32,000 bases of DNA from an uncultured Alphaproteobacteria bacterium. Its GTDB lineage: Bacteria; Pseudomonadota; Alphaproteobacteria; Rs-D84. Position numbers and translations under genes: made by a program. The notes below the pieces were generated by a model, which did not search any database, was not told the origin of the DNA, and worked only from the letters and a program-made list of their open reading frames with translations. The stretch is from the NCBI GenBank assembly GCA_963931495.1, contig OZ007020.1:900001-932000 (forward strand), read 5' to 3'. Below, one piece after another: positions 1 through 31,200 of the stretch (positions are counted from its first letter, which is position 1; every line of letters starts with the position of its first letter).

Positions 1-1447
1 ATTCAACCTGGGTTGATTTATAGGATGTTTACAATTACTACACCGGTATCTGTAACTAGGGCGCAACAATACAGAAACCTGACGCGCACGCCATAAAATA
101 TGGGTGCGATTCAACCATAGGTTGTATATTTTCATATTCACAATTATTGTAACGGCATATGCAAACATATTTACATCAGTGCCATAAAACGGTGAAAACA
201 CTATAAAATCGGGCCGTAATTCAACCTAGGGTTGAACAAAACGATGTTTGTATCCGGTAAGTCGTTATCTGTAATAATATGTAAAATATGCTACGTGCAC
301 CGCAAAATGTGAACATAATTCAACCATAGGTTGAATTTTGCGATGCTTGTAATTCGTAAATCGGCATTTATAATTGGGGTATAATAACTCAAAACATGCT
401 GCACACACTATAAAACATAGATGCAATTCAACCCCAGGTTAAATGCTGTAATGTTTACGATTGACGCGCTATCGCCAGCAAGAATATCAAAACACGTTGC
501 AGACGTTATAAATCTGGGACGCAATTCAACTATGGGTTGAACGTTGCGTTATTCACAACTGACGAACAGCCGTCAGCAACAATACAAAATATGGTGTATA
601 TACCGTAAAACATGGGCGAGATTCAATCATAGGTTGTATATCGTCATATTCACAATTACTGCGCCGACATCTATAACCAGGGCATAACAATGCAAAAAAC
701 ATGGCGCATAGGCTATAAAACATGGGTGCGATTCAACCACAGGTTGAACGACATCATATCAACAATCAGCATACTGTTGCATATAATAATATTAAAACTC
801 CTTATAGACATTGTAAATCGTGGGTACGATTCAACCTAAGGTTGAACAAAACGATGTTCGCAACTGGTAATTCGGCGCCTGTAATAATATATAAAATATG
901 CTGCACACACTATAAAACATAGACGCAATTCAACCCCAGGTTAAATGCTGTAATGTTTACGATTGACGCGCTATCGCCAGCAAGAATATCAAAACACGTT
1001 GCAGACGTTATAAATCTGGGACGCAATTCAACTATGGGTTGAACGTTGCGTTATTCACAACTGACGAACAGCCGTCAGCAACAATACAAAATATGGTGTA
1101 TATACCGTAAAACATGGGCGAGATTCAATCATAGGTTGTATATCGTCATATTCACAATTACTGCGCCGACATCTATAACCAGGGCATAACAATGCAAAAA
1201 ACATGGCGCATAGGCTATAAAACATGGGTGCGATTCAACCACAGGTTGAACGACATCATATCAACAATCAGCATACTGTTGCATATAATAATATTAAAAC
1301 TCCTTATAGACATTGTAAATCGTGGGTACGATTCAACCTAAGGTTGAATTATGTAAGTTTTACGATTAGTGTCCCATCGCCTGTCGCAACATCAAAACAC
1401 GCTGCACGCACGATAAACCATGGGTGTAATTCAACCATAGGTTGAAT
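1..1447. repeat. Tandem array of 15 diverged units of about 100 bp, each with a 16-19 bp palindrome (consensus ATTCAACC-N3-GGTTGAAT); truncated by the window edge
   Basis: Palindrome cores start at 1,109,219,318,426,524,621,731,829,928,1026,1123,1233,1331,1429 (spacing 97-110 bp). Perfect copies at 318-336 and 1429-1447. The left flank TATAAAAcATGGGTGCG is also conserved. Segments between palindromes are homologous to each other. Confidence 0.9.
396..1348. repeat. Higher-order duplication inside the array: 396-846 repeated at 898-1348 (offset 502 bp, five units)
   Basis: Base-by-base comparison shows a single mismatch (t at 421 vs c at 923) over about 451 bp, while neighbouring units are far more diverged. 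Confidence 0.9.
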
Positions 1448-1517
1448 ATCAATGTTTTTTACAATCGTTATAACAGCGGTATCAAATAAATTTCAGGTGA
1501 TTTTGGCCAAGTATTTA

Positions 1518-1546
1518 TTGATTTAATTGTCAATTTGTGATATAAT
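1518..1546 (+). promoter_or_regulatory. Sigma70-type promoter TTGATT-17 bp-TATAAT with TGn extended -10
   Basis: ttgatt 1518-1523, 17-nt spacer ending in tga, tataat 1541-1546. Confidence 0.55.
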
Positions 1547-1552
1547 GTGTGG

Positions 1553-1618
1553 CATCCAAGCACCATAATAATTATTTATATTTTTATATGCCCGACCATG
1601 TTTTATGGTCGGGTTTTT
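1553..1618 (+). ncRNA. Candidate short transcript of about 65 nt, or a terminated leader, between the array and the tail-fibre gene
   Basis: The predicted start about 7 nt after the -10 element runs into an intrinsic terminator. There is no ORF in this stretch. Confidence 0.3.
1591..1618 (+). terminator. Rho-independent terminator
   Basis: cccgaccat (1591-1599) pairs with atggtcggg (1605-1613), followed by ttttt (1614-1618). Confidence 0.6.
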
Positions 1619-1640
1619 CATTTGATTCAAAGGAGATTTT

Positions 1641-9165: not shown

Positions 9166-9933
9166 ATGACGCGATATATTGATGCACATTGTCATTTGCA
9201 AAACAACACATCACAAAATGTCACAGACGTAATATCCAGTGCAGTTGCACAAAACATTGTTGGGTTTGTGTGCAATGCGACCAATCCAGACGATTGGGAT
9301 TCTGTATTAAATCTGGGGAAAATGTGCGCATCGGTATATGGATGCATTGGTATACATCCGTGGCACATTGATAATTTAACACCGAATTGGCACACCCGAA
9401 TGATTGAAATCTTGGCCCAGCATCCAGAATTAATGATTGGTGAAATCGGACTGGATAATTCGCGTCCGAATATAGATGCCCAGCAAAAAGTATTCATGGC
9501 CCAAATGGATATCGCACATATTATGGGACGCGTTGTGCATATTCATTGCGTTCATGCCATAGACAAGATGTTACACATATTCCGACATCGCCACGGAATG
9601 ATGCCACCGGCAATTGTTATGCATTCTTTTTCCGGCCCTGCGAATGTGATTGACCGATTAATAAATGAATATAATGCGTATTTTTCATATTCACCAATGA
9701 TACATGATTCGCGGCGACGTGGAATGCGCGCGGCATTATGCGCCACCCCAAACAACAGAATTTTGGCCGAAAGCGACTGTGAAAATCCGCTGCGCGTACT
9801 GGATGTCGTAAACACGATATCAGAAGTAAAATCCACAGATGTTGCACAAATGGCAGATATAATATACAGTAACACTCACCAGGCATTAAAAAATGGACCG
9901 ACTGAACCGAACACGTTTATTATTGGGAAATGA
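9166..9933 (+). CDS. TatD-family metal-dependent hydrolase/DNase
   Basis: N-terminal YIDAHCHL, plus GEIGLD and HIHCV motifs. Start moved to ATG 9166 so the protein begins just before the HxH motif. Confidence 0.8.
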   Translation: MTRYIDAHCHLQNNTSQNVTDVISSAVAQNIVGFVCNATNPDDWDSVLNLGKMCASVYGCIGIHPWHIDNLTPNWHTRMIEILAQHPELMIGEIGLDNSRPNIDAQQKVFMAQMDIAHIMGRVVHIHCVHAIDKMLHIFRHRHGMMPPAIVMHSFSGPANVIDRLINEYNAYFSYSPMIHDSRRRGMRAALCATPNNRILAESDCENPLRVLDVVNTISEVKSTDVAQMADIIYSNTHQALKNGPTEPNTFIIGK

Positions 9934-10570
9934 CGCGGTAAAAAAACTGGCCGATGCGACCGTAATGATTGTTGGTTGTGGCGCGGTTGGGTCTTTTTCC
10001 GCCGAAGCATTGGCACGCACCGGTGTCGGACACATGATACTGGTGGATTTTGATGTCATAGAAGAATCAAATATAAATCGGCAATTGTTTGCACTGGGAT
10101 CAACCATCGGCATGGCAAAGGTTGACGCTGCCGCCGCGCGAATTCGCGACATTAACCCAAAAGCGGATGTGACAACATTAAATTTATTTTGGGATAATGG
10201 AACCGATATTCCGCAAAGACCCGATTTTGTAATTGACGCAATTGATTCTGTGGATTCAAAAATCGCATTATATAAATGGTGTAATCGTTTCGGCATTCCG
10301 TTTATATCCAGCATGGGTGCCGCACGCCGGTGCGATATGTCCAATATTAAAATCGCACCAATATCAAAAACATCTGTGTGTCCGTTGGCGGCACGCATTC
10401 GCAAAATTGTGCGCACAGAAAATATACCTGAATTTGATGTTGTGTATTCAACCGTACCGCCCATGGCCGGAACAATGCCGGGACGTACGTTTGGGTCACT
10501 GGTTACTGTTACTGGGACATTCGGTTTAATGATGGCAAATTACATAATTAATAAAATAATACACCAATAA
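9893..10570 (+). CDS. tcdA: tRNA threonylcarbamoyladenosine dehydratase (TcdA/CsdL, ThiF family)
   Basis: RTRLLLG...VMIVGCGAVGSFSAEALARTGVGHMILVDFDVIEESNINRQ ThiF/E1-like Rossmann motif. Overlaps the TatD 3' end by 41 nt. Confidence 0.8.
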   Translation: MDRLNRTRLLLGNDAVKKLADATVMIVGCGAVGSFSAEALARTGVGHMILVDFDVIEESNINRQLFALGSTIGMAKVDAAAARIRDINPKADVTTLNLFWDNGTDIPQRPDFVIDAIDSVDSKIALYKWCNRFGIPFISSMGAARRCDMSNIKIAPISKTSVCPLAARIRKIVRTENIPEFDVVYSTVPPMAGTMPGRTFGSLVTVTGTFGLMMANYIINKIIHQ

Positions 10571-11027: not shown

Positions 11028-13913
11028 TTAATCCACCGCGTGATACGTTTTGCCGTCATATTGGATGTTCAGTGTTCCCGCACCACTTTCCAATATGCCA
11101 TAGCATACACCACCACCAGTACCAATGTTCAACGATGGCGTGGATAATGCCGAACTGTACAACGGTATCGTCACACCATTGCCCGTACGCAGACTGGTCA
11201 CACCCAGTGTACATAACTGGCTGCACGTGTTCGTCCCCGTCAGATTATACCCATCGTCACAAACCGTCGTATATGTGCAACTGGCGGGATAATTGACACT
11301 ATCACTGACTGGGGTATTCACACCACCAACAATACTTTGACTGATGCAATTTTTTGCACACCCTGCTTCACTGGTTGCCGCCGGGCCATCACGATACCCG
11401 TCTGGGCACTGGGTCGGTGCGGTCGCCCCGGCCCCAGACCAATTGCCCGTCCCAACAGAAACACATAAATTGCTTTTCAAATCCGCCGCAGATGCCGCCC
11501 ATATCTGGTTATTTCCATTTGGGTTATAGTATGATGCAGCGCATACAGTGCCATTTACCACATTTGTGCACCAATCGTCACCACACCCATCTTTAACCCC
11601 ATAATCACCCTCGCAATATCCGCAGCTGTACGCATAACTGCCTGTTATTGCGGCTTCGGAAAAAGAAGCGCGACAACCATAAACCATATTATGCACATCA
11701 TCACTCGTCCAATACCAATAACTGGTTACCAACCCTGCATACTCTGTTGCGGTTGGACATTGCTTGCAACTGCTGGCGCCATCGGTATCTGAATATGTTG
11801 CGCCTGTGCACTTATTACAACTAGACGTGTTGCCATAGTACACGGTATGTGCCGGATTCCAATACCCCGCCGTACATGTTGATTGCGTTGAACTGTTTGC
11901 TGTCTTAATATAATTACCCGCAGATACATTAATATAACACGAACCAATGCCACCCGTTGTACCGTTCGCAGATGTATACCCCGTCGGGCATTTTTCACAA
12001 CTGTTACCGTTCTTGTAATATCCCGCCTGGCACGCCGATGCCACTACTGTTCCGCCACTGCACGAACCCCACGAACTGCACCCCGTGCATTGCGATGCAC
12101 TGGTTGCACCCGCCGGCCCACCGGTATGTTTACCAGTACATTTTTGCGTTGCACCACTGATTGTACCCGCCGTGGCGTGCGCGTTACTTAATTCCGTGCT
12201 GGTCGCACTGCGCGAACACGATTGTGATAAATCCGTCGCACTGATACTGGTACAAGATGAACAGCCCGTTGCCGCAGTCGCGCCATTATATGTTCCAGGG
12301 CTGCATGCCGTACAACTGGTCGCATAAGTATAACTGCCATCTTGTCCTGGTGCCTGACTGCCAATATTACCAACCTGGGCCGTATATGTTCCTGGACTGC
12401 ATGGTGTACATGAATTAGTAAATCCCGATCCCATAGATACAGATTGATTTATATAATACCCCGCATTACATTCAGAAAAATGTTTGTTGTTTTCACAATT
12501 ATTATAAACCTGGGTTGAACTGTCATAGTAGCACTTGCCAGGTACCCGATAAAAACCCTTGTATTGAAATTCAAATGTCCAATAATCATCCACATCGCTA
12601 TCCAAATAACACTGGGTTGCTGCACTGGCCCCCGCTGGACTGCGTAACACGGCCGCACCATTATACGAATAGAATTTAGATGACGATGTCGGGGGGCATG
12701 AATAACGTGTGCTGTTATTGCAATAATATCCACTTTCGCACAATTTGCACGAATTACCGTTCTTGTAATATCCCGCCGAACATGATGTAATGGTTAATGT
12801 GCCGCCACTGCACGTACCCCAACTGCTGCAACCCGTGCATTGCGATGCACTGGTTGCACCCGCCGGCCCACCGGTATGTTTACCAGTACACTGTTGCTTC
12901 GCACCGCTGATTGTACCCGCCGTGGCGTGCGCATTGCTTAATTCCGTGCTGGTTGGATTGCGTGAACATGATTGTGACAAGTCCGTCGCACTGACACCCG
13001 TACAGGCCGGACAGCTGCTGCCGCTTTTGTAATATCCTGAGTTACAAGATATGCTGATTGAACATGTGGATGACGCCGCACTGCACGAACCACCGTAATA
13101 TTGGGTACCACTGGTAGATGAACTGCCATGGCGACAGGTCGCATTTGGCGGACATATCTGTCGCGTACAGGATTTGGTACATGATCTATAGCATGCGCCC
13201 GCACCGTTGGAATTACCATTCGCAGATGACGTATAACCCAAACTGCTGCATGTTGCACAGCTGTTGCCGTTCTTGTAATATCCCGCCTGGCACGCCGATG
13301 CCACTACTGTTCCGCCACTGCACGAACCCCACGAACTGCAACCCGTGCATTGCGATGCACTGGTTGCGCCAACCGGCCCACTGGTATGTTTACCAGTACA
13401 CTGTTGCTTCGCGCCACTGATTGTACCCGCCGTGGCGTGTGCGTTGCTTAATTCCGTGCTGGTTGGATTGCGGGAACATGATTGTGATAAATCCGTCGCA
13501 CTGATACTGCTGCATGTTGAACAACTGTTACCGGCATCATAACCATTTAAGTAATACCCTGGCGAACATGATGTAATGGTTAATGTACCACCACTGCACG
13601 TACCCCAACTGCTGCACCCGGTGCACGACCCAGAGCCAGCTGTTCCGCCCGCACCACCGGTATGTTTACCAGTACACTGTTGCTTCGCACCACTGATTGT
13701 ACCCGCGTATGCGTGCGCATTGCTTAATTCCGTGCTGGTCGCACTGCGTGAACATGATTGTGACAAGTCCGTCGCACTGATACTGCTGCATGTTGAACAA
13801 CTGTTACCGGCACCAGTACCATTTAAGAAATACCCGGATTTGCACGATGTATATTTCTTGGCCGACGCAGAGCATGTATACCCCGCCCCATAACCATCAG
13901 GCACAATGCACAA
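11028..13913 (-). CDS. Large (961 aa as called) Cys/Gly/Ser/Thr-rich modular surface-type protein with eukaryote-like CxxC / GYYxNG / CxxCPxGTY repeats; 5' end unresolved
   Basis: Single long ORF. A module of about 77 aa (CSTCSSISATDLSQSCSR..TSTELSNAHA.AGTISGAKQQCTGKHTGG....CTGCSSWG.CSGGT) occurs four times. CTPCSPGTY and CTACSPGTY resemble ephrin-receptor/TNFR-like Cys repeats. The called start is TTG inside a hydrophobic stretch. Confidence 0.75.
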   Translation of the reverse strand: MCIVPDGYGAGYTCSASAKKYTSCKSGYFLNGTGAGNSCSTCSSISATDLSQSCSRSATSTELSNAHAYAGTISGAKQQCTGKHTGGAGGTAGSGSCTGCSSWGTCSGGTLTITSCSPGYYLNGYDAGNSCSTCSSISATDLSQSCSRNPTSTELSNAHATAGTISGAKQQCTGKHTSGPVGATSASQCTGCSSWGSCSGGTVVASACQAGYYKNGNSCATCSSLGYTSSANGNSNGAGACYRSCTKSCTRQICPPNATCRHGSSSTSGTQYYGGSCSAASSTCSISISCNSGYYKSGSSCPACTGVSATDLSQSCSRNPTSTELSNAHATAGTISGAKQQCTGKHTGGPAGATSASQCTGCSSWGTCSGGTLTITSCSAGYYKNGNSCKLCESGYYCNNSTRYSCPPTSSSKFYSYNGAAVLRSPAGASAATQCYLDSDVDDYWTFEFQYKGFYRVPGKCYYDSSTQVYNNCENNKHFSECNAGYYINQSVSMGSGFTNSCTPCSPGTYTAQVGNIGSQAPGQDGSYTYATSCTACSPGTYNGATAATGCSSCTSISATDLSQSCSRSATSTELSNAHATAGTISGATQKCTGKHTGGPAGATSASQCTGCSSWGSCSGGTVVASACQAGYYKNGNSCEKCPTGYTSANGTTGGIGSCYINVSAGNYIKTANSSTQSTCTAGYWNPAHTVYYGNTSSCNKCTGATYSDTDGASSCKQCPTATEYAGLVTSYWYWTSDDVHNMVYGCRASFSEAAITGSYAYSCGYCEGDYGVKDGCGDDWCTNVVNGTVCAASYYNPNGNNQIWAASAADLKSNLCVSVGTGNWSGAGATAPTQCPDGYRDGPAATSEAGCAKNCISQSIVGGVNTPVSDSVNYPASCTYTTVCDDGYNLTGTNTCSQLCTLGVTSLRTGNGVTIPLYSSALSTPSLNIGTGGGVCYGILESGAGTLNIQYDGKTYHAVD
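12033..13799. repeat. Four near-identical intragenic modules of about 230 bp (13569-13799, 13293-13523, 12783-13013, 12033-12263)
   Basis: The SATDLSQSCSR-coding segment recurs at 13746-13778, 13470-13502, 12960-12992 and 12210-12242, with long flanking nucleotide identity. Confidence 0.85.
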
Positions 13914-14131
13914 CAGTAGTAATAAAGAGAAAAAAAAGTGAACGTTTAGTTACGACAATATCGGAGGGACACAATGTCGCAGATTTTCGGGATTTTTAGA
14001 AATATTGCTAAAATAACCGTTCCTTTAGATTCGGCACGGTTTTTTGCCCTGCGTCCCTTGCAGGGATATGGATTTTTTCACCTTTTTACAAGTGATTTTT
14101 TTGACGATTTGTATCTGTACAAAAAATAGTG

Positions 14132-15487
14132 TTAAAACCGCTGTTGCAACGTCAATTCCACCGACCAACGATCATATTCACGTTGCCATATATTAGAATC
14201 ACGACGAGTATAACTGAGCACCAATGCCGGAACAAAACCCAGAAAATCAAATTTATTATTTGAAACAGATACCGAATAACGCTGGGTAAAATCACGTTCT
14301 GTCATGTATGTCGGCTGTTCGTTTTGAATCGTAAACTGTTCATCACCATAAAATTGCCAATAAAACATTGGTTCAGCATAAATATTAAATCCATATGGCA
14401 ATTCCGTACCAATGCCAATACTGATACTGGGTTGAAAATACGAGTATTCTGGACGAACGGTATCTTCATATGCCACCGCGCCACGCAGTACAGTATATAT
14501 GTTTGATGTTATTGAATAAAACATATGCACAGATGCAGAATATGTGTTGCCATCCAGATATGCGGCATAATAATCATACTGGTTACTGGTGTACAATAAC
14601 GATAACCCGCCTGATAATTTGCGTGTAAAATCATAGTTTGTGTTTAATCGCACACCCGCCGACCAATTATATGCATCCCATCCATACCAACGGCGGGACG
14701 CCACACCCGCCAACCATATATCGCCATCGGACCATATATAACGTGGACCTGTGCTGGCATACAAATACAGATCATCATAGTTATGCTTGTTATAAATATT
14801 AAAATACATGCCGGCATCTGATTTCCAACGCCAACTGTTGGTTAAACGAAATTCGTAATTTCCACCCAGTTGAAAATTATACCCAAACGCAGATTCCGGC
14901 ACCGGTAAATCACGGCACCACCGCCCAAACATTTCAACACATTCTGTTCCGCCCGCCGCATTATTTACGTTGTTGTCAGGCGCCGCACCAAAATTAAACC
15001 AAACATTCCAATTTTTATTCTGGCGAATGACAAATCGGTAAAAGTTCATCATCTGGCGAACATTTTCTGGCAAATCGTCACCCGCCATTGCCAAACGTAA
15101 TTGATAGTCTGCCCGATACCACTGTTCTGTCTTCATATAACATACCGCCAATTCAAAGCGGACCCGCGCCAAGTCTGGATGCGCGTCCAGAATTGTACGA
15201 TATATACTTATTGCAGAATCAAAATCACCACGAAATGCCGCAATTCGCCCCAGTAAAAACCAACGTTCCAGTTCCAGTGGCCCACCACCCAAATTCGGTA
15301 TTTTTGTTAATATTTGTTCCGCCGTATCCAGATTGCCAGAATCAACCATATCGCCAGCCATCTTTACCGCGTCCAGCGCAGACATCGTAATTTCCGTGGT
15401 ACCATCAGATTTTTTTACTGATGAAATTTCTGCCCGAACTATGCCGGGCAGAATCGCAATAATCAAAATCAATATTATCTGTTTCAA
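14132..15487 (-). CDS. Surface lipoprotein assembly modifier (Slam; TPR N-domain + DUF560 beta-barrel)
   Basis: Signal peptide MKQIILILIIAILPGIVRA, TPR-like helices (FRGDFDSAISIYRTILDAHPD), and a long aromatic-rich beta-barrel region ending LTLQQRF. TTG start 2 nt after the upstream stop. Confidence 0.65.
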   Translation of the reverse strand: MKQIILILIIAILPGIVRAEISSVKKSDGTTEITMSALDAVKMAGDMVDSGNLDTAEQILTKIPNLGGGPLELERWFLLGRIAAFRGDFDSAISIYRTILDAHPDLARVRFELAVCYMKTEQWYRADYQLRLAMAGDDLPENVRQMMNFYRFVIRQNKNWNVWFNFGAAPDNNVNNAAGGTECVEMFGRWCRDLPVPESAFGYNFQLGGNYEFRLTNSWRWKSDAGMYFNIYNKHNYDDLYLYASTGPRYIWSDGDIWLAGVASRRWYGWDAYNWSAGVRLNTNYDFTRKLSGGLSLLYTSNQYDYYAAYLDGNTYSASVHMFYSITSNIYTVLRGAVAYEDTVRPEYSYFQPSISIGIGTELPYGFNIYAEPMFYWQFYGDEQFTIQNEQPTYMTERDFTQRYSVSVSNNKFDFLGFVPALVLSYTRRDSNIWQREYDRWSVELTLQQRF

Positions 15488-15489
15488 TG

Positions 15490-16767
15490 TTAATGAACAC
15501 CAAACACCATATCCATTTTAACGCCATCCGCACCTTCGTCAAATGTAACGGTACCAATCGCCTCGGTCGGGGTGCCGGCGTTACCATATGGTCCATAATA
15601 TTGAACGTTCATTTTACCATCCGAAATTACCAAATTTCCCGTTTCATCTGGTTGCGTGGTTAACCGCATATCATATGCCCCATTTGGTTTATACTGGGTA
15701 AATTTCATATTTGTACCGTCCGCATTTTGTGTTACATTAACATCATACCAATTATTAAATTCGGCAAACAGGTTTGTTTCTTTGGCATCTGTATCAAATG
15801 TCAATGTTGCCAAACCATCCAATGTTAACCGACCGCCGCCATCCTTGCCAGATTTAACCAATCCAATCGCACGACCAGAAAAATTAACGTCAGTGGTCAC
15901 AGTGGCAATATTCTTGGATTCATATCCGCCAGTGAAAATCACATATGCGTTATCAGGGTCATCAACATAGACAATGTCGGGTAATGTCTGGTGCACAATG
16001 TTATAAAAACCAAAGTCAGAATACTGTAACCCCATGTCTTTACCGATGGAATTATATGTTAACTTTGACATGCGCCCGGCATCGGTATCGCTGTGCCAAA
16101 ACTGATACGAACCAGTTACGTACCCATCAGAATTATGTAATGTTTCGTACGTTGTGCCGTCATCAGAACCATCAGATATTGTAACCGATATAATATCGCC
16201 CAACGCATCAACACCAAATGTTAACTGTTTACCGTTTATATCGGTCATTTTGGCATCGGTTATATCCAACACATCCGCATTTTCTAATATTTCAGCAACA
16301 TTAACCGCGTATTGTAATCCGTCACGCCAATTTGTAAAACATGCCACAGTGGACGATGCGCTGGCCCCATTAAAGCAATTACCAAGTTCCTGGTTTATAA
16401 CAAACATTGCCGCGTGCAATACATCTGCGTCTTGTTCAAAAAATTCAGAAATTTGCTTGTCAGTGGCATTTGTTAATTGAACCGCCATCTGGGCAATATC
16501 CATATAATCATTCGTGGATATATTATCCGAACTGAATTTCTTTAACCGCGCCGTGATATATTTTTTTACCTGGTCATCGTTCTTGGTAATCATACCGGTA
16601 ATTTCAGCGTTTTCATCGGACACAGTGTCTTTATATGGCGTATCCTGGATTTGCGGGTAATAATCAGGGCGTTCCTTGTACGGGTCGTACGACAAACTGC
16701 CCCCGATGTTGCCATCACTGCACGCCGCAATCAACAACACAGGTAATAAATATAAAATATTTCTCAT
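15490..16767 (-). CDS. Surface lipoprotein with a TbpB/fHbp-like C-terminal beta-barrel (likely Slam substrate)
   Basis: Lipobox LLIAAC. The C-terminal pattern FSGRAIGLV...LTLDGLATLTFD...MNVQYYGPYGNAGTPTEAIGTVTF...MVFGVH resembles the TbpB-type lipoprotein barrel. AAGGAA RBS. Confidence 0.6.
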   Translation of the reverse strand: MRNILYLLPVLLIAACSDGNIGGSLSYDPYKERPDYYPQIQDTPYKDTVSDENAEITGMITKNDDQVKKYITARLKKFSSDNISTNDYMDIAQMAVQLTNATDKQISEFFEQDADVLHAAMFVINQELGNCFNGASASSTVACFTNWRDGLQYAVNVAEILENADVLDITDAKMTDINGKQLTFGVDALGDIISVTISDGSDDGTTYETLHNSDGYVTGSYQFWHSDTDAGRMSKLTYNSIGKDMGLQYSDFGFYNIVHQTLPDIVYVDDPDNAYVIFTGGYESKNIATVTTDVNFSGRAIGLVKSGKDGGGRLTLDGLATLTFDTDAKETNLFAEFNNWYDVNVTQNADGTNMKFTQYKPNGAYDMRLTTQPDETGNLVISDGKMNVQYYGPYGNAGTPTEAIGTVTFDEGADGVKMDMVFGVH

Positions 16768-29086: not shown

Positions 29087-30745
29087 CTAACGTTCATTGG
29101 ATGTATCACGGCCGGGAACGTTTTGCTGGGCGATTTCTTGCGACCTGTTTTTTACAAGCATTCTTGCACGCCATAAATCATAAGATTTCTGAAGGTGTTC
29201 GGGCCATGTATTTTTATCTGACCTTTTTATTTCGCGCACGCCCGATAAATCTGTATTACTTAGCATAACTTCTTTCGTACGATTAAAATCTAATACTGGT
29301 GGTAAATTTTTACAAAAACTTAGGTTAATCTTTTTGGTTGGACCTTTTATTTCGCGCACGCCCGATAAATCTGTATTACTTAGCACAACTTCTTTTGTGC
29401 CGCAAAAATCCAATACCGGTAGTAAAATTTTAGATCCGCTTAAGTCAATCTTTTCAGTTGGCAATTTTATTTCGCGAACATCAGATAAATTTGTAAAACT
29501 TAAAGTAACCTCTTTTGTATGACTAAAATCCAATACTGGTGGTAAATTTTTACATCCGCCTAAGTCAATCTTTTCAGTTGGCCATTTTATTTCGCGCGCA
29601 CCCGATAAATCAGTATAACTTAAATCAACAGCCCTTGTACCGCTAAAATCCAATTTCGGGTGCAAATTCATGTTCTTTGCCCCGGTAAGATCTAAATTTC
29701 CCGTGACTTTTATATTCAAATTTATGTCAGACAAATCCATGCCAGACAAGTCCAAATCACCACGCACAACAAAACCGTTTGGCAAATCGTATATTGAATA
29801 ATATTTTCCATCCTGTTTTATCAATCCGATGTTTTTCATATCGTGTTTGATTTCCAGTTTTTGTGCCCCTATAAAATGTTGAACCGCTGGGATATACCTT
29901 TGTATCGGTGTCCTATTCCCCTTGCCTTTGCATTGAAATACATTTTGACCACGAACTTCAAGCGTCGCATGTGGTTCACCGTTGCTGTCCCTGATTGAAT
30001 ATATTTTTACACTGCCGTTTGTTACATCTTTATCATATCCGCCACGGCCAACACAATGCCCCATATATTCGCTTTCAAAATCCAATGCCTGGGGCGTTAT
30101 TAATTGATATGCACGCATACCGTTCGGCAAATCCATAATAAACTGCGTTCCGGCAAGCGACGCTTTATACATCTGTTCATTTTTTTCTTTCTTGGCGGCC
30201 AATTCAGCCATACGTTCGTGCCACTTTTCCGCCTGGACCAACGTTTTTTCAAACGTGCTGTATTCATTGCTGGTCTTCAGATAATCTAAACGCACCTTGG
30301 GTAACTTCTTTTTATCTTTTTGTATATTTTCTTTTATCGCGATGACGGTCTTGTCAACATAACTTTCCGCCGCAGAATATAAAAAATCCCTTATTGTTGT
30401 TAAATCATGACGCATTTGATCCGTCACCTTGGCGGCATCAAACAAATATACTTTCTGGCCCGCGTCCAACGCCCCGGTCGCCCAATCAGGTAAATCCGCA
30501 CGCTTTGATACAGGTGTTAAAAATGGACGCTCTTCACTTTCTGTTAAATAAGCCCTGATTCTGTGCTTAATATACTGCGTCAAGATAGAACGAACGATGG
30601 TATCTTTATTTTGCTCTATATAATTTGCGTCTTTCATGTTTTCTTGGGATTGACCGTCCAAAATAATCGGCATGCCGCGTTCACCCCAAACAAGATTAAT
30701 CAGGTAATTATTAAGTTCTTTGTCATTTAACAAATTAACAGACAT
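29087..30745 (-). CDS. PcfJ-like domain protein with C-terminal 40-aa tandem pentapeptide/LRR-like repeats
   Basis: EYMGHCVGRGGYDKDVTNGSVKIYSIRDSNGEPHATLEVRGQNVFQCKGKGNRTP matches the PcfJ-like pattern. The C-terminus has four repeats of LDFxxTKEVxLSxTDLSGVREIKxPTEKIDLxxxKNLPPV. Start set to ATG 30745 (AGGGG SD). Confidence 0.6.
   Translation of the reverse strand: MSVNLLNDKELNNYLINLVWGERGMPIILDGQSQENMKDANYIEQNKDTIVRSILTQYIKHRIRAYLTESEERPFLTPVSKRADLPDWATGALDAGQKVYLFDAAKVTDQMRHDLTTIRDFLYSAAESYVDKTVIAIKENIQKDKKKLPKVRLDYLKTSNEYSTFEKTLVQAEKWHERMAELAAKKEKNEQMYKASLAGTQFIMDLPNGMRAYQLITPQALDFESEYMGHCVGRGGYDKDVTNGSVKIYSIRDSNGEPHATLEVRGQNVFQCKGKGNRTPIQRYIPAVQHFIGAQKLEIKHDMKNIGLIKQDGKYYSIYDLPNGFVVRGDLDLSGMDLSDINLNIKVTGNLDLTGAKNMNLHPKLDFSGTRAVDLSYTDLSGAREIKWPTEKIDLGGCKNLPPVLDFSHTKEVTLSFTNLSDVREIKLPTEKIDLSGSKILLPVLDFCGTKEVVLSNTDLSGVREIKGPTKKINLSFCKNLPPVLDFNRTKEVMLSNTDLSGVREIKRSDKNTWPEHLQKSYDLWRARMLVKNRSQEIAQQNVPGRDTSNER
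29221..29700. repeat. Four tandem 120-bp repeats inside the PcfJ-like gene
   Basis: Units begin at 29221, 29341, 29461 and 29581. The first two are nearly identical at nucleotide level. Confidence 0.85.
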
Positions 30746-30765
30746 AAAATACCCCTGTTGCCCGC

Positions 30766-30794
30766 ATTGTATCACAAGCACTGAAAAATAACAA
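30766..30794 (-). promoter_or_regulatory. Promoter TTGTTA-17 bp-(TGa)TACAAT for the PcfJ-like gene
   Basis: On the minus strand, ttgtta is at 30794-30789 and tacaat at 30771-30766, with a TGn extended -10. Confidence 0.45.
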
Positions 30795-30845
30795 GCGGCG
30801 CAACCGATATACCGATGACCACTTTTGGCAGCATTTGGAATACTT

Positions 30846-30864
30846 TGTGTGTGTGGGGGGGGGG
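30846..30864. repeat. Simple-sequence tract (TG)5 followed by G10
   Basis: tgtgtgtgtg then G10 at 30855-30864 (C10 on the gene strand), about 60 nt upstream of the predicted -35. Confidence 0.9.
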
Positions 30865-31200
30865 ATAAATCTCTATTCTCAAACGCAATAAAAATCACAC
30901 CCATGTGCGCGATTATTTTCTGGCAGGGTGATAAGATTTGACGGTATTAGATATGATAAATACAGGTATTTGCAGTGAATTTTTATCTTTTTGTGGTCTC
31001 TATTTTCGCCCGCCACACCACAGTTCCGACACTTTTGCAAAAAATCCCACAAAAATAACAGGGAGTTTGATTTTCCCAAAACAGGGATTCTTCCTCACCA
31101 TATCAGGCAATAAATTTACCACATTCATCCCACTATACGTGCGCAATGATAACAATTGATAGTTGATTATGGGTATATTTCCCGGAATAATTATGACAAT

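Follow-up and report, generated by a model that had tools for sequence, protein, structure and literature searches.

The window analysed here, a stretch of 32,000 nt (GenBank assembly GCA_963931495.1, contig OZ007020.1, positions 900,001 to 932,000), opens with a tandem array of 19-bp palindromes in the DNA of an uncultured gut alphaproteobacterium. With a probability of roughly 45%, we read it as a single-locus mosaic array comparable to the Neisseria intergenic mosaic elements (NIME) and the bacterial interspersed mosaic elements (BIME) of Escherichia coli, whose palindromes would be recombination crossover sites for a putative enzyme and which would border a hotspot of defence islands. According to this reading, the palindromes would be exchange points where short modules duplicate, delete, invert or swap; they would also mark the joins of foreign gene blocks, namely restriction-modification/toxin-antitoxin (R-M/TA) islands, integrase islands and a system of clustered regularly interspaced short palindromic repeats (CRISPR-Cas); and a dedicated enzyme encoded elsewhere may act on them. 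By analogy with what has been proposed for the repeat arrays of Neisseria and E. coli, the palindromes probably act as break-and-rejoin points. In the following, unlabelled positions are those of the window, and L-numbers denote the individual contigs or loci with which it was compared.

A search of the window for ATTCAACCNNNGGTTGAAT with up to three mismatches returned 14 matches, all between positions 109 and 1447, compared with 0.35 ± 0.56 matches per 32 kb expected from shuffled sequence; a fifteenth, degenerate site with a 2-nt centre (ATTCAACC-TG-GGTTGATT) occupies positions 1-18. The general form of the palindrome is ATTCAACC-N3-GGTTGAAT, and neighbouring sites lie 97–110 bp apart (Table 1), in agreement with an earlier note, made from the letters of the window, which had counted fifteen palindromes at this spacing. 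That note had also called the array non-coding, and it is: no stop-free stretch exceeds 75 codons in any frame, and units of 97–110 bp do not keep to one reading frame. Contig L006 (ERZ21549405 tig00001934), which shows no differences from the window over the 12 kb compared, carries the array only about 55 nt beyond the left edge, where a partial unit meets an Eco57I-family gene. As all strains are collinear from position 1476 onwards, the array spans about −55 to 1475 (approximately 1.5 kb).

Judged by their sequence, the units are homologous yet heavily diverged; identity between the inter-palindrome segments is 0.47–0.71, with a shuffled baseline of 0.55. A profile anchored on the palindrome centres identified as conserved the palindrome itself, about 35 nt to its left (AAAACA.G.TGCA.ACACTATAAAAC.TGGGTGCG) and a right-hand block, AT.TT.ACAATT; conservation is highest in the palindrome and its left flank, as had been noted before. 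This flank lies on the plus strand throughout, giving all units of the window a single orientation. Because positions 396-846 recur at 898-1348 with one mismatch, only about ten of the units are independent.

Evidence that exchanges fall at the palindromes comes from the boundaries of these rearranged segments. The 451-nt duplicate ends on its right at base 18 of a palindrome. Positions 620-834 (copy 1122-1336) match L002, L004 and L005 in inverted orientation (L005 9674-9460) with 86% identity overall; within this module the inverted homology is about 93%, and it reaches background level at the palindromes at 621 and 829. The left part of the window is collinear with the distal block of L002 (84% identity). 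Furthermore, right-arm variants go with the body downstream of them (GTAT with at..tcatattcacaatt, GAAC with aaaacgatg), and left arms are inherited together with the upstream flank, which places the exchanges in the palindrome core. Blocks of either orientation are present in other arrays, as are genes bracketed by palindromes: a 123-aa orphan, and an ADP-ribosylglycohydrolase fragment within a duplicated 2,367-bp module. Genes that touch the array are truncated exactly at array sequence.

The second line of evidence is the comparison of eight contigs that encode an identical 324-aa protein downstream of the array and are syntenic on that side, while differing on the left. Next to the same gene (100% identical), four different left neighbours were found: (i) in L001, L003, L006 and L007, an island with Eco57I-family, SocA/Panacea and methyltransferase genes (R-M/TA); (ii) in L002 and L004, two different P4-type integrase islands, which have in common only a 5'-truncated serine-recombinase remnant; (iii) in L005, as also in L100 and L279, a TetR-flavodoxin-DUF362-420-aa arrangement that is apparently ancestral; and (iv) in L008, a type II-C CRISPR-Cas9 system at the exact position of the array (L008 1148-9800), with zero palindromes. 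Site counts among the strains are 0, 15 and 22–28, so that both copy number and content vary; the earlier note had suggested looking for variation in copy number. The right flank is joined at one and the same nucleotide by three unrelated left-hand sequences. At the distal end, what adjoins the last unit is the 420-aa gene in L005 and L100 but, in L280, codon 53 of a resolvase. Fragments of serine-recombinase genes found at the edge of the array (L280 3331-3582, the N-terminal 53 codons; L002 5468-6448 and L004 5576-6457, the C-terminal Recombinase and Zn-ribbon domains) are each cut exactly where array sequence starts. An inversion running through a serine-recombinase gene was considered, but as no complementary halves were found there is no evidence for it. 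No tRNA that might provide an attB site for the integrase islands is adjacent to them.

Two genes beside or within these arrays, considered as candidates for a cognate protein, could not be assigned to families. For the 420-aa neighbour, Pfam, NCBIfam and PDB gave no match and PHROG no meaningful one. The 123-aa orphan (L005 8753-9124; homologues P0001-P0007), which lies between palindromes, was likewise assigned to no family, and its AlphaFold model has a pLDDT of 56. It is basic, cysteine-rich, lineage-restricted and embedded between palindromes at six loci; internal deletions or frameshifts affect four of the seven clusters, and the N- and C-termini are invariant.

To characterize the sites themselves, statistics were computed on 136 unique sites. 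These show no stem covariation, and the complementarity of the arms is accounted for by conservation alone (z near 0). Pairing at positions 3/17 falls short of what independent positions would give (z = −2.9). On either side of the centre, complementary bases are avoided (14% vs 31%, z = −4.7); the centre itself is mostly TGT, ACA, ATA or TAC. Beyond the 19 bp the flanks are essentially asymmetric, and any extended palindrome signal is weak. By their arms, the sites fall into the flavours S (ATTCAACC...GGTTGAAT; 74 sites), A (...GGTTGTAT; 28) and B (ATACAACC...; 32), and two sites are doubly changed and complementary (Z).

Several of these properties would suit sites that are bound as duplex DNA by a dimeric protein, such as a nucleoid, partition, silencing or insulator complex, in which case the array would be a nucleoprotein block at the border of a variable region and the rearrangements would be side-effects, for example of fork stalling. 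The strict 8-N3-8 spacing, the absence of covariation together with the tolerance of asymmetric half-sites, the abundance of flexible pyrimidine-purine steps in the centre, and a spacing of about ten helical turns in the window are all as this explanation would have it. We nevertheless regard it as improbable, since the spacing in other arrays is unphased (48–250 bp), no ParB/SopB, helix-turn-helix (HTH) or ribbon-helix-helix gene is consistently adjacent, and L008 does without the array next to identical flanking genes. Nor does it offer an obvious reason for the conserved doublets with an extended inner stem described below.

Sites of flavours A and B can form inverted doublets. Among 23 pairs at 55–80 bp spacing in all arrays, nine are A-then-B and one is B-then-A; in long arrays, A is followed exactly 60 bp on by B, its reverse complement, and the next A comes about 108 bp later. 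As a single strand, such a 79-nt doublet folds into an outer stem of 7–8 bp, an internal loop of 4–5 × 4–5 nt and an inner stem of 12–19 bp (fold z of five doublets: −7.2, −3.7, −2.9, −2.3 and −1.7); no such fold is seen for the 88-nt linker (z = −0.45). Examples of these doublets are L005 6693-6771 and 7256-7334. The sites of the window are a minimal form, with the outer arms fused around a 3-nt centre, which could be derived from a doublet by a 60-bp deletion between two CAACY repeats. The core, ATTCAAC-CNNNG-GTTGAAT, has a pair of 7-bp AAC boxes, inverted and separated by 5 bp, and fits RYYYAAC-N5-GTTRRRY. Because of these boxes, and because the doublets mirror the layout of integron attC sites, the first candidate for the putative enzyme would be a tyrosine recombinase of the integron/Xer kind; the second would be a hairpin-specific single-strand enzyme resembling Ssn or RAYT, the transposases associated with repetitive extragenic palindromic (REP) sequences.

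A number of observations speak against crossover at the palindromes or against these candidates. The left end of the 451-nt duplicate lies away from any palindrome, and the junctions between array and flank are 28 or 54 nt from the nearest one. A 19-bp palindrome is, moreover, itself a short inverted and direct repeat, so that rearrangements with the same palindrome boundaries would also arise from RecA-dependent events or from slippage. The differing centres of the sites would block classical two-strand tyrosine recombination, and the mutual homology of the linkers suggests tandem amplification: unlike the unrelated genes of integron cassettes, the 'cassettes' here are mostly homologous 80–90-bp non-coding linkers with few embedded ORFs (open reading frames). 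The doublet folds lack the extrahelical bases and the strand asymmetry of attC sites, being symmetric and alike on both strands. The fit to RYYYAAC/GTTRRRY was noticed post hoc, and we estimate its chance probability, after multiple comparisons, to be of the order of 1e-2. Of recombinase, RAYT, IS110 and GIY-YIG genes, none is a constant neighbour of the arrays within ±10 kb. Finally, one apparent case of copy-number variation was rejected. L003 and L007 have nine sites where L001 and L006 have 14–15, and what they lack is exactly 502 bp (window 423-924), with zero mismatches elsewhere in the array or in 5 kb of flank, which makes them one strain; as the 502-bp difference is seen only in short-read (k87) assemblies and coincides with the division between short-read and long-read assemblies, it is probably a repeat-collapse artefact mimicking copy-number variation.

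To determine how widely the element occurs, we scanned 185,579 species genomes for the exact palindrome; the matches listed cover an estimated ~80%. At least ~110 of the sites among them are chance singletons, where ~139 would be expected for the whole collection. Arrays were found, among the matches listed, only in metagenome-assembled genomes (MAGs) of related gut alphaproteobacteria (L024, L105, L092, L100, L072/L050 and L040), each with one region only. In these related species the arrays have 3–30 sites and lie in synteny with ORFs homologous to those of 420 aa and 123 aa. In 81 kb of non-array sequence from the species of the window there were just two hits, each with three mismatches and neither convincing; that there is one region per genome is thus a statement about ~80% estimated scan coverage and an 81-kb local sample. 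Scans of viral and JGI metagenome sequences with a two-palindrome pattern gave chance matches only, none of them homologous. Unit blocks are conserved even in a species whose Cas9 is only ~24% identical, and unit blocks together with the site variants A, B and B' are kept between otherwise very divergent species.

These results bear on the chief alternative, that the array is a selfish or neutral hairpin satellite, similar to REPs, to REPINs (inverted REP doublets) or to miniature inverted-repeat transposable elements (MITEs), which was amplified in place by slippage, unequal crossing-over or a RAYT/Ssn-type enzyme, has no host function and lies in a neighbourhood whose variability is passive. 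The homologous linkers are a signature of tandem amplification, the near-exact 451-nt duplicate is readily accommodated, the inverted A/B doublets resemble REPINs, the alternating orientation with two linker classes resembles BIME-2, and the architecture is akin to that of the NTS/SRM hairpins with their oriented 5' flank (PMC11893778). However, the preservation of unit blocks and of the A, B and B' variants across divergent species argues for selection, and there is one locus per genome, with no dispersal, in the matches listed and the 81-kb sample. The earlier note had named a genome-wide dispersed REP/MITE-type repeat as the outcome that would overturn its view, and the element instead appears limited to one locus. 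Direct reading of L005 revealed no target-site duplications around the doublets, for which reason their interpretation as MITEs was rejected; the SRM and dRS3 patterns are absent; and there is no GIY-YIG or Y1 transposase gene within ±10 kb. All in all, we hold a satellite to be a serious but unlikely explanation.

The earlier note had further described sigma70-like promoter pairs in several units, each of which could launch an RNA of 50–65 nt ending in the hairpin. Such pairs are indeed present at 347-374 and 759-787, but they are not enriched (13 vs 8.2 ± 3.3 in shuffles), there is no T-run after the hairpin and no covariation in its stem, and no Rfam 15 family reaches its gathering score for the array of the window (best 26.7 bits vs a 50-bit threshold) or for that of L005 (best 29.4 vs 74); the proposed RNAs are therefore not upheld. 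Tandem small-RNA genes, or a processed RNA array with type III antitoxin-like or CRISPR-like logic, might account for the directional conservation of the flank, the few sigma70-like pairs and the palindrome clusters that adjoin type II-C CRISPR arrays in L040 and L072. We consider this very unlikely, given also that the upstream motif conserved across unit families is AAAAC and not a −10 box, that unit blocks occur in both orientations, and that the repeats are too diverged, and the 'spacers' too alike, for CRISPR. CRISPR arrays are defined by near-identical repeats and unique spacers; the present array, with variable repeats and homologous 'spacers', has neither, the homology of the segments having led the note to the same verdict, and the true arrays of L008 and L040 look entirely different. 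A type III toxin-antitoxin (ToxI-like) system, in which short near-identical repeats precede an endoribonuclease toxin dependent on them, was rejected as well: the units are diverged, and the downstream gene is identical in L008, where the array is absent, and hence does not encode a toxin that requires the repeats. Between the array and this gene there are, moreover, a promoter and a terminator of their own.

It has also to be considered whether the array is a remnant or accessory of a neighbouring CRISPR-Cas system, for instance a region resembling a trailer or leader, or else the termini of a mobile CRISPR-Cas module. In two species the palindrome AATCAACYTRTTGTAGAAT lies 53 nt upstream of the CRISPR repeat at the trailer end (L072 5203-5310 and 7570-7680; L040 2360-2467), and in L008 CRISPR-Cas takes the position of the array. 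On direct reading, however, the 53-nt segment resembles an ordinary linker after B' sites, most arrays have no CRISPR within ±10 kb, L008 combines CRISPR-Cas with an absence of palindromes, and no CRISPR spacer matches the array or the islands. We judge such a relationship to be extremely improbable. The CRISPR array of L008 has ~55 repeats, each ending in TGATATAAT, a promoter-like box embedded in the repeat, and a tracrRNA adjoins cas9. In L072, a solitary CRISPR repeat remains directly upstream of a 110-aa ORF and the ADP-ribosylglycohydrolase fragment, and the 2,367-bp module is duplicated whole.

The locus is part of the chromosome of an uncultured gut alphaproteobacterium and is neither a prophage nor a plasmid. 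The neighbourhood encodes SDR and TPP (thiamine pyrophosphate) enzymes, PAP2, PagL, DHFR, TatD, ThiF, a Slam outer-membrane protein, glycosyltransferases and DNA-repair genes, and the array is placed between a strain-variable segment and a conserved gene, of a ~300-aa family, that heads a glycosyltransferase cluster. Collections of phage and plasmid records showed no DNA similarity to the locus, and no Neisseria or Pasteurellaceae uptake sequences (DUS and USS, respectively) were found, so that a host among the Neisseriaceae, to which Slam had pointed, was rejected. A centromere like sopC of plasmid F, or a prophage iteron or operator array, both suggested by the earlier note, do not fit this chromosomal setting, in which no ParA/ParB/SopB or phage genes were found within ±10 kb in the eight strains; extension to the left, which the note had recommended, likewise revealed no ParB/SopB, HTH or recombinase gene that is consistently adjacent. 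The coordinates of the array and its surroundings are given in Table 1.

Table 1. Palindromes, larger segments and adjoining features, in window coordinates
Feature	Position	Strand	Remark
Tandem array of ~100-bp diverged units	1-1475	+	continues ~55 nt to the left as a partial unit
Degenerate palindrome, ATTCAACC-TG-GGTTGATT	1-18		2-nt centre; identical sequence also in L002
Palindrome, ATTCAACC ATA GGTTGTAT	109-127		A-type (right arm GTAT)
Palindrome, ATTCAACC TAG GGTTGAAC	219-237
Perfect palindrome, ATTCAACC ATA GGTTGAAT	318-336
Palindrome, ATTCAACC CCA GGTTAAAT	426-444
Palindrome, ATTCAACT ATG GGTTGAAC	524-542
Palindrome, ATTCAATC ATA GGTTGTAT	621-639		A-type; left boundary of the module inverted in L002/L004/L005
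Palindrome, ATTCAACC ACA GGTTGAAC	731-749
Palindrome, ATTCAACC TAA GGTTGAAC	829-847		right boundary of the inverted module; near-exact duplicate stops at its base 18
Palindrome	928-946		copy of the site at 426
Palindrome	1026-1044		copy of the site at 524
Palindrome	1123-1141		copy of the site at 621
Palindrome	1233-1251		copy of the site at 731
Perfect palindrome, ATTCAACC TAA GGTTGAAT	1331-1349		same as the site at 829 through base 18; body downstream differs
Last palindrome, perfect	1429-1447		followed by a 28-nt partial unit, 1448-1475
Near-exact internal duplicate, copy 1 (451 nt)	396-846	+	sole mismatch at 422
Near-exact internal duplicate, copy 2	898-1348	+
Two-unit module	620-834	+	second copy 1122-1336; opposite orientation in L002/L004/L005 beside the same flanking gene
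Conserved right flank, outside the array	1476-1640	+	first base GCGGTATCAAATAAA; joint for three unrelated left-hand sequences
Extended −10 promoter in the right flank	1518-1546		upstream of the 324-aa ORF
Strong terminator hairpin in the right flank	1590-1614		upstream of the 324-aa ORF
Downstream ORF, 324 aa	1641-2615	+	lineage-conserved hypothetical family; independent of the array

The 324-aa ORF had been taken for a tail-fibre gene. Only its residues 5-86 bear a weak resemblance to a phage tail-protein family (E = 5e-7), and its family, of ~300-aa proteins, is encoded on long chromosomal contigs of related MAGs, so that this designation is not supported. Distant homologues in other species (42–53% identical) have no palindromes within ±10 kb, and the array is therefore not tied to this gene. 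Distant homologues in sister species that lack arrays (L284-L286, at about 9850-10000) retain 'tgatataat' and one or two terminator hairpins; the leader of the gene in the window (1518-1620) could be a conserved attenuator or a small RNA. Two further observations concern more remote parts of the window. A 120-bp tandem repeat (3.6 copies, 80% identity, 29225-29654) lies within a 605-aa PcfJ-like ORF on the minus strand (29087-30904). In region 11028-16767, a 961-aa ORF with an unusually high G+C content of 0.49–0.50 (window, 0.41) adjoins the gene for Slam, a surface lipoprotein assembly modifier, and a 425-aa ORF to which no family could be assigned; the region may encode a surface lipoprotein that depends on Slam, or may have been gained by horizontal transfer.

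NIME and BIME arrays have been known for decades, and it is only recently that their mechanism has begun to open up to study, one example being the cutting of NTS hairpins by the Ssn nuclease. The present locus would be a compact, single-copy version of such a mosaic array, lying exactly at the border where strains swap defence systems. If its palindromes are true recombinase or nuclease targets, it would offer a simple system, with one array at one address, for studying the origin and upkeep of defence-island hotspots, and would extend attC-like geometry beyond integrons. Should it prove no more than a local satellite, it would still serve as a warning for assembly and for CRISPR and repeat callers in metagenomes. 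A bolder version, which we think doubtful, is that the arrays are the footprint of a new site-specific recombination platform, integron- or shufflon-like but lacking a known integrase, in which a new enzyme would recombine the 19-bp core and the 79-bp doublets; the platform would recruit and reshuffle CRISPR-Cas9, R-M and toxin-antitoxin systems at one address next to a surface-polysaccharide cluster.

Among known systems, the earlier note had considered the sopC centromere the closest, and tandem units each with an inverted repeat are indeed common to both. However, sopC consists of near-identical 43-bp units adjoining sopAB on a plasmid, whereas the units described here are ~100-bp, diverged and mosaic, and lie on a chromosome with no ParA/ParB within ±10 kb. 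By architecture, closer analogues are the NIME of Neisseria, the BIME/REPIN clusters of E. coli and integron attC arrays, although no described family matches by sequence, be it in phage and plasmid records, in Rfam or by the SRM and dRS3 patterns, which agrees with the note in this regard.

REPs are dispersed genome-wide and associated with RAYT genes. With BIME and REPINs, the arrays of L005 and L002 share imperfect palindromes of alternating orientation, two conserved linker classes and hairpin-forming inverted doublets; in contrast, the element appears confined to one locus, the vicinity of the arrays holds no RAYT (Y1_Tnp) gene, and the units of the window all have one orientation.

The attC sites of integrons have R boxes of the form RYYYAAC/GTTRRRY, a 5–6-nt spacer between R and L boxes and a length of 57–141 bp (PMC5027507). 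On direct reading, ATTCAAC and GTTGAAT conform to the R boxes, and the 79-bp doublets, which are within this length range, give the order R''-spacer-L''...L'-spacer-R' with a 4–5-nt unpaired spacer, a correspondence that does not apply to the 19-bp sites of the window. Like integrons and CALIN, which are arrays without an integrase, the locus is a single strain-variable array per chromosome with small genes between sites. It differs in that no intI, attI or Pc was found beside it, the integrases near it being exclusively P4-type (Arm-DNA-bind_3 and Phage_integrase) and present in two of the eight strains; it may nevertheless be a CALIN.

NIME consist of 20-bp dRS3 palindromes flanking 50–150-bp RS families. 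Dynamic and situated next to variable genes, they have been proposed as recombinase substrates (PMC1797815). About half of the dRS3 copies are part of the NTS, a longer hairpin in which 3 nt separate ATTCCCGCG from CGCGGGAAT and the flank is oriented; according to a 2025 finding, the NTS is cut as single-stranded DNA by SsnA, a small GIY-YIG nuclease (PMC11893778). In its sequence the array departs from these elements: the dRS3 pattern ATTCCC-N8-GGGAAT has zero matches in the window, and the SRM pattern HGTCWYN(0-2)YYVSBRHN(0-5)WNVSBRGN(0-2)RNCYNB has none in the window or in ten related loci, although a positive-control NTS instance was matched. The stem is AT-rich, and there is one locus per genome, in the matches listed and the 81-kb sample, rather than hundreds of copies. 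Among the genes called within ±10 kb in the eight strains, there was no GIY-YIG Pfam hit that would indicate a GIY-YIG (cd10448) gene with a flanking motif, and neither an ssnA-like gene nor an Nf-phage recombinase was seen. Conversely, both have short palindromes that start with ATTC and end with GAAT, with a 3-nt centre as in NTS; in both, the palindromes are separated by strain-variable repeat segments of 50–150 bp belonging to several families; and both have an oriented conserved flank next to the palindrome and form dynamic arrays beside variable genes. While the sequence patterns are not matched, the design of the array is strikingly similar to that of NTS/NIME.

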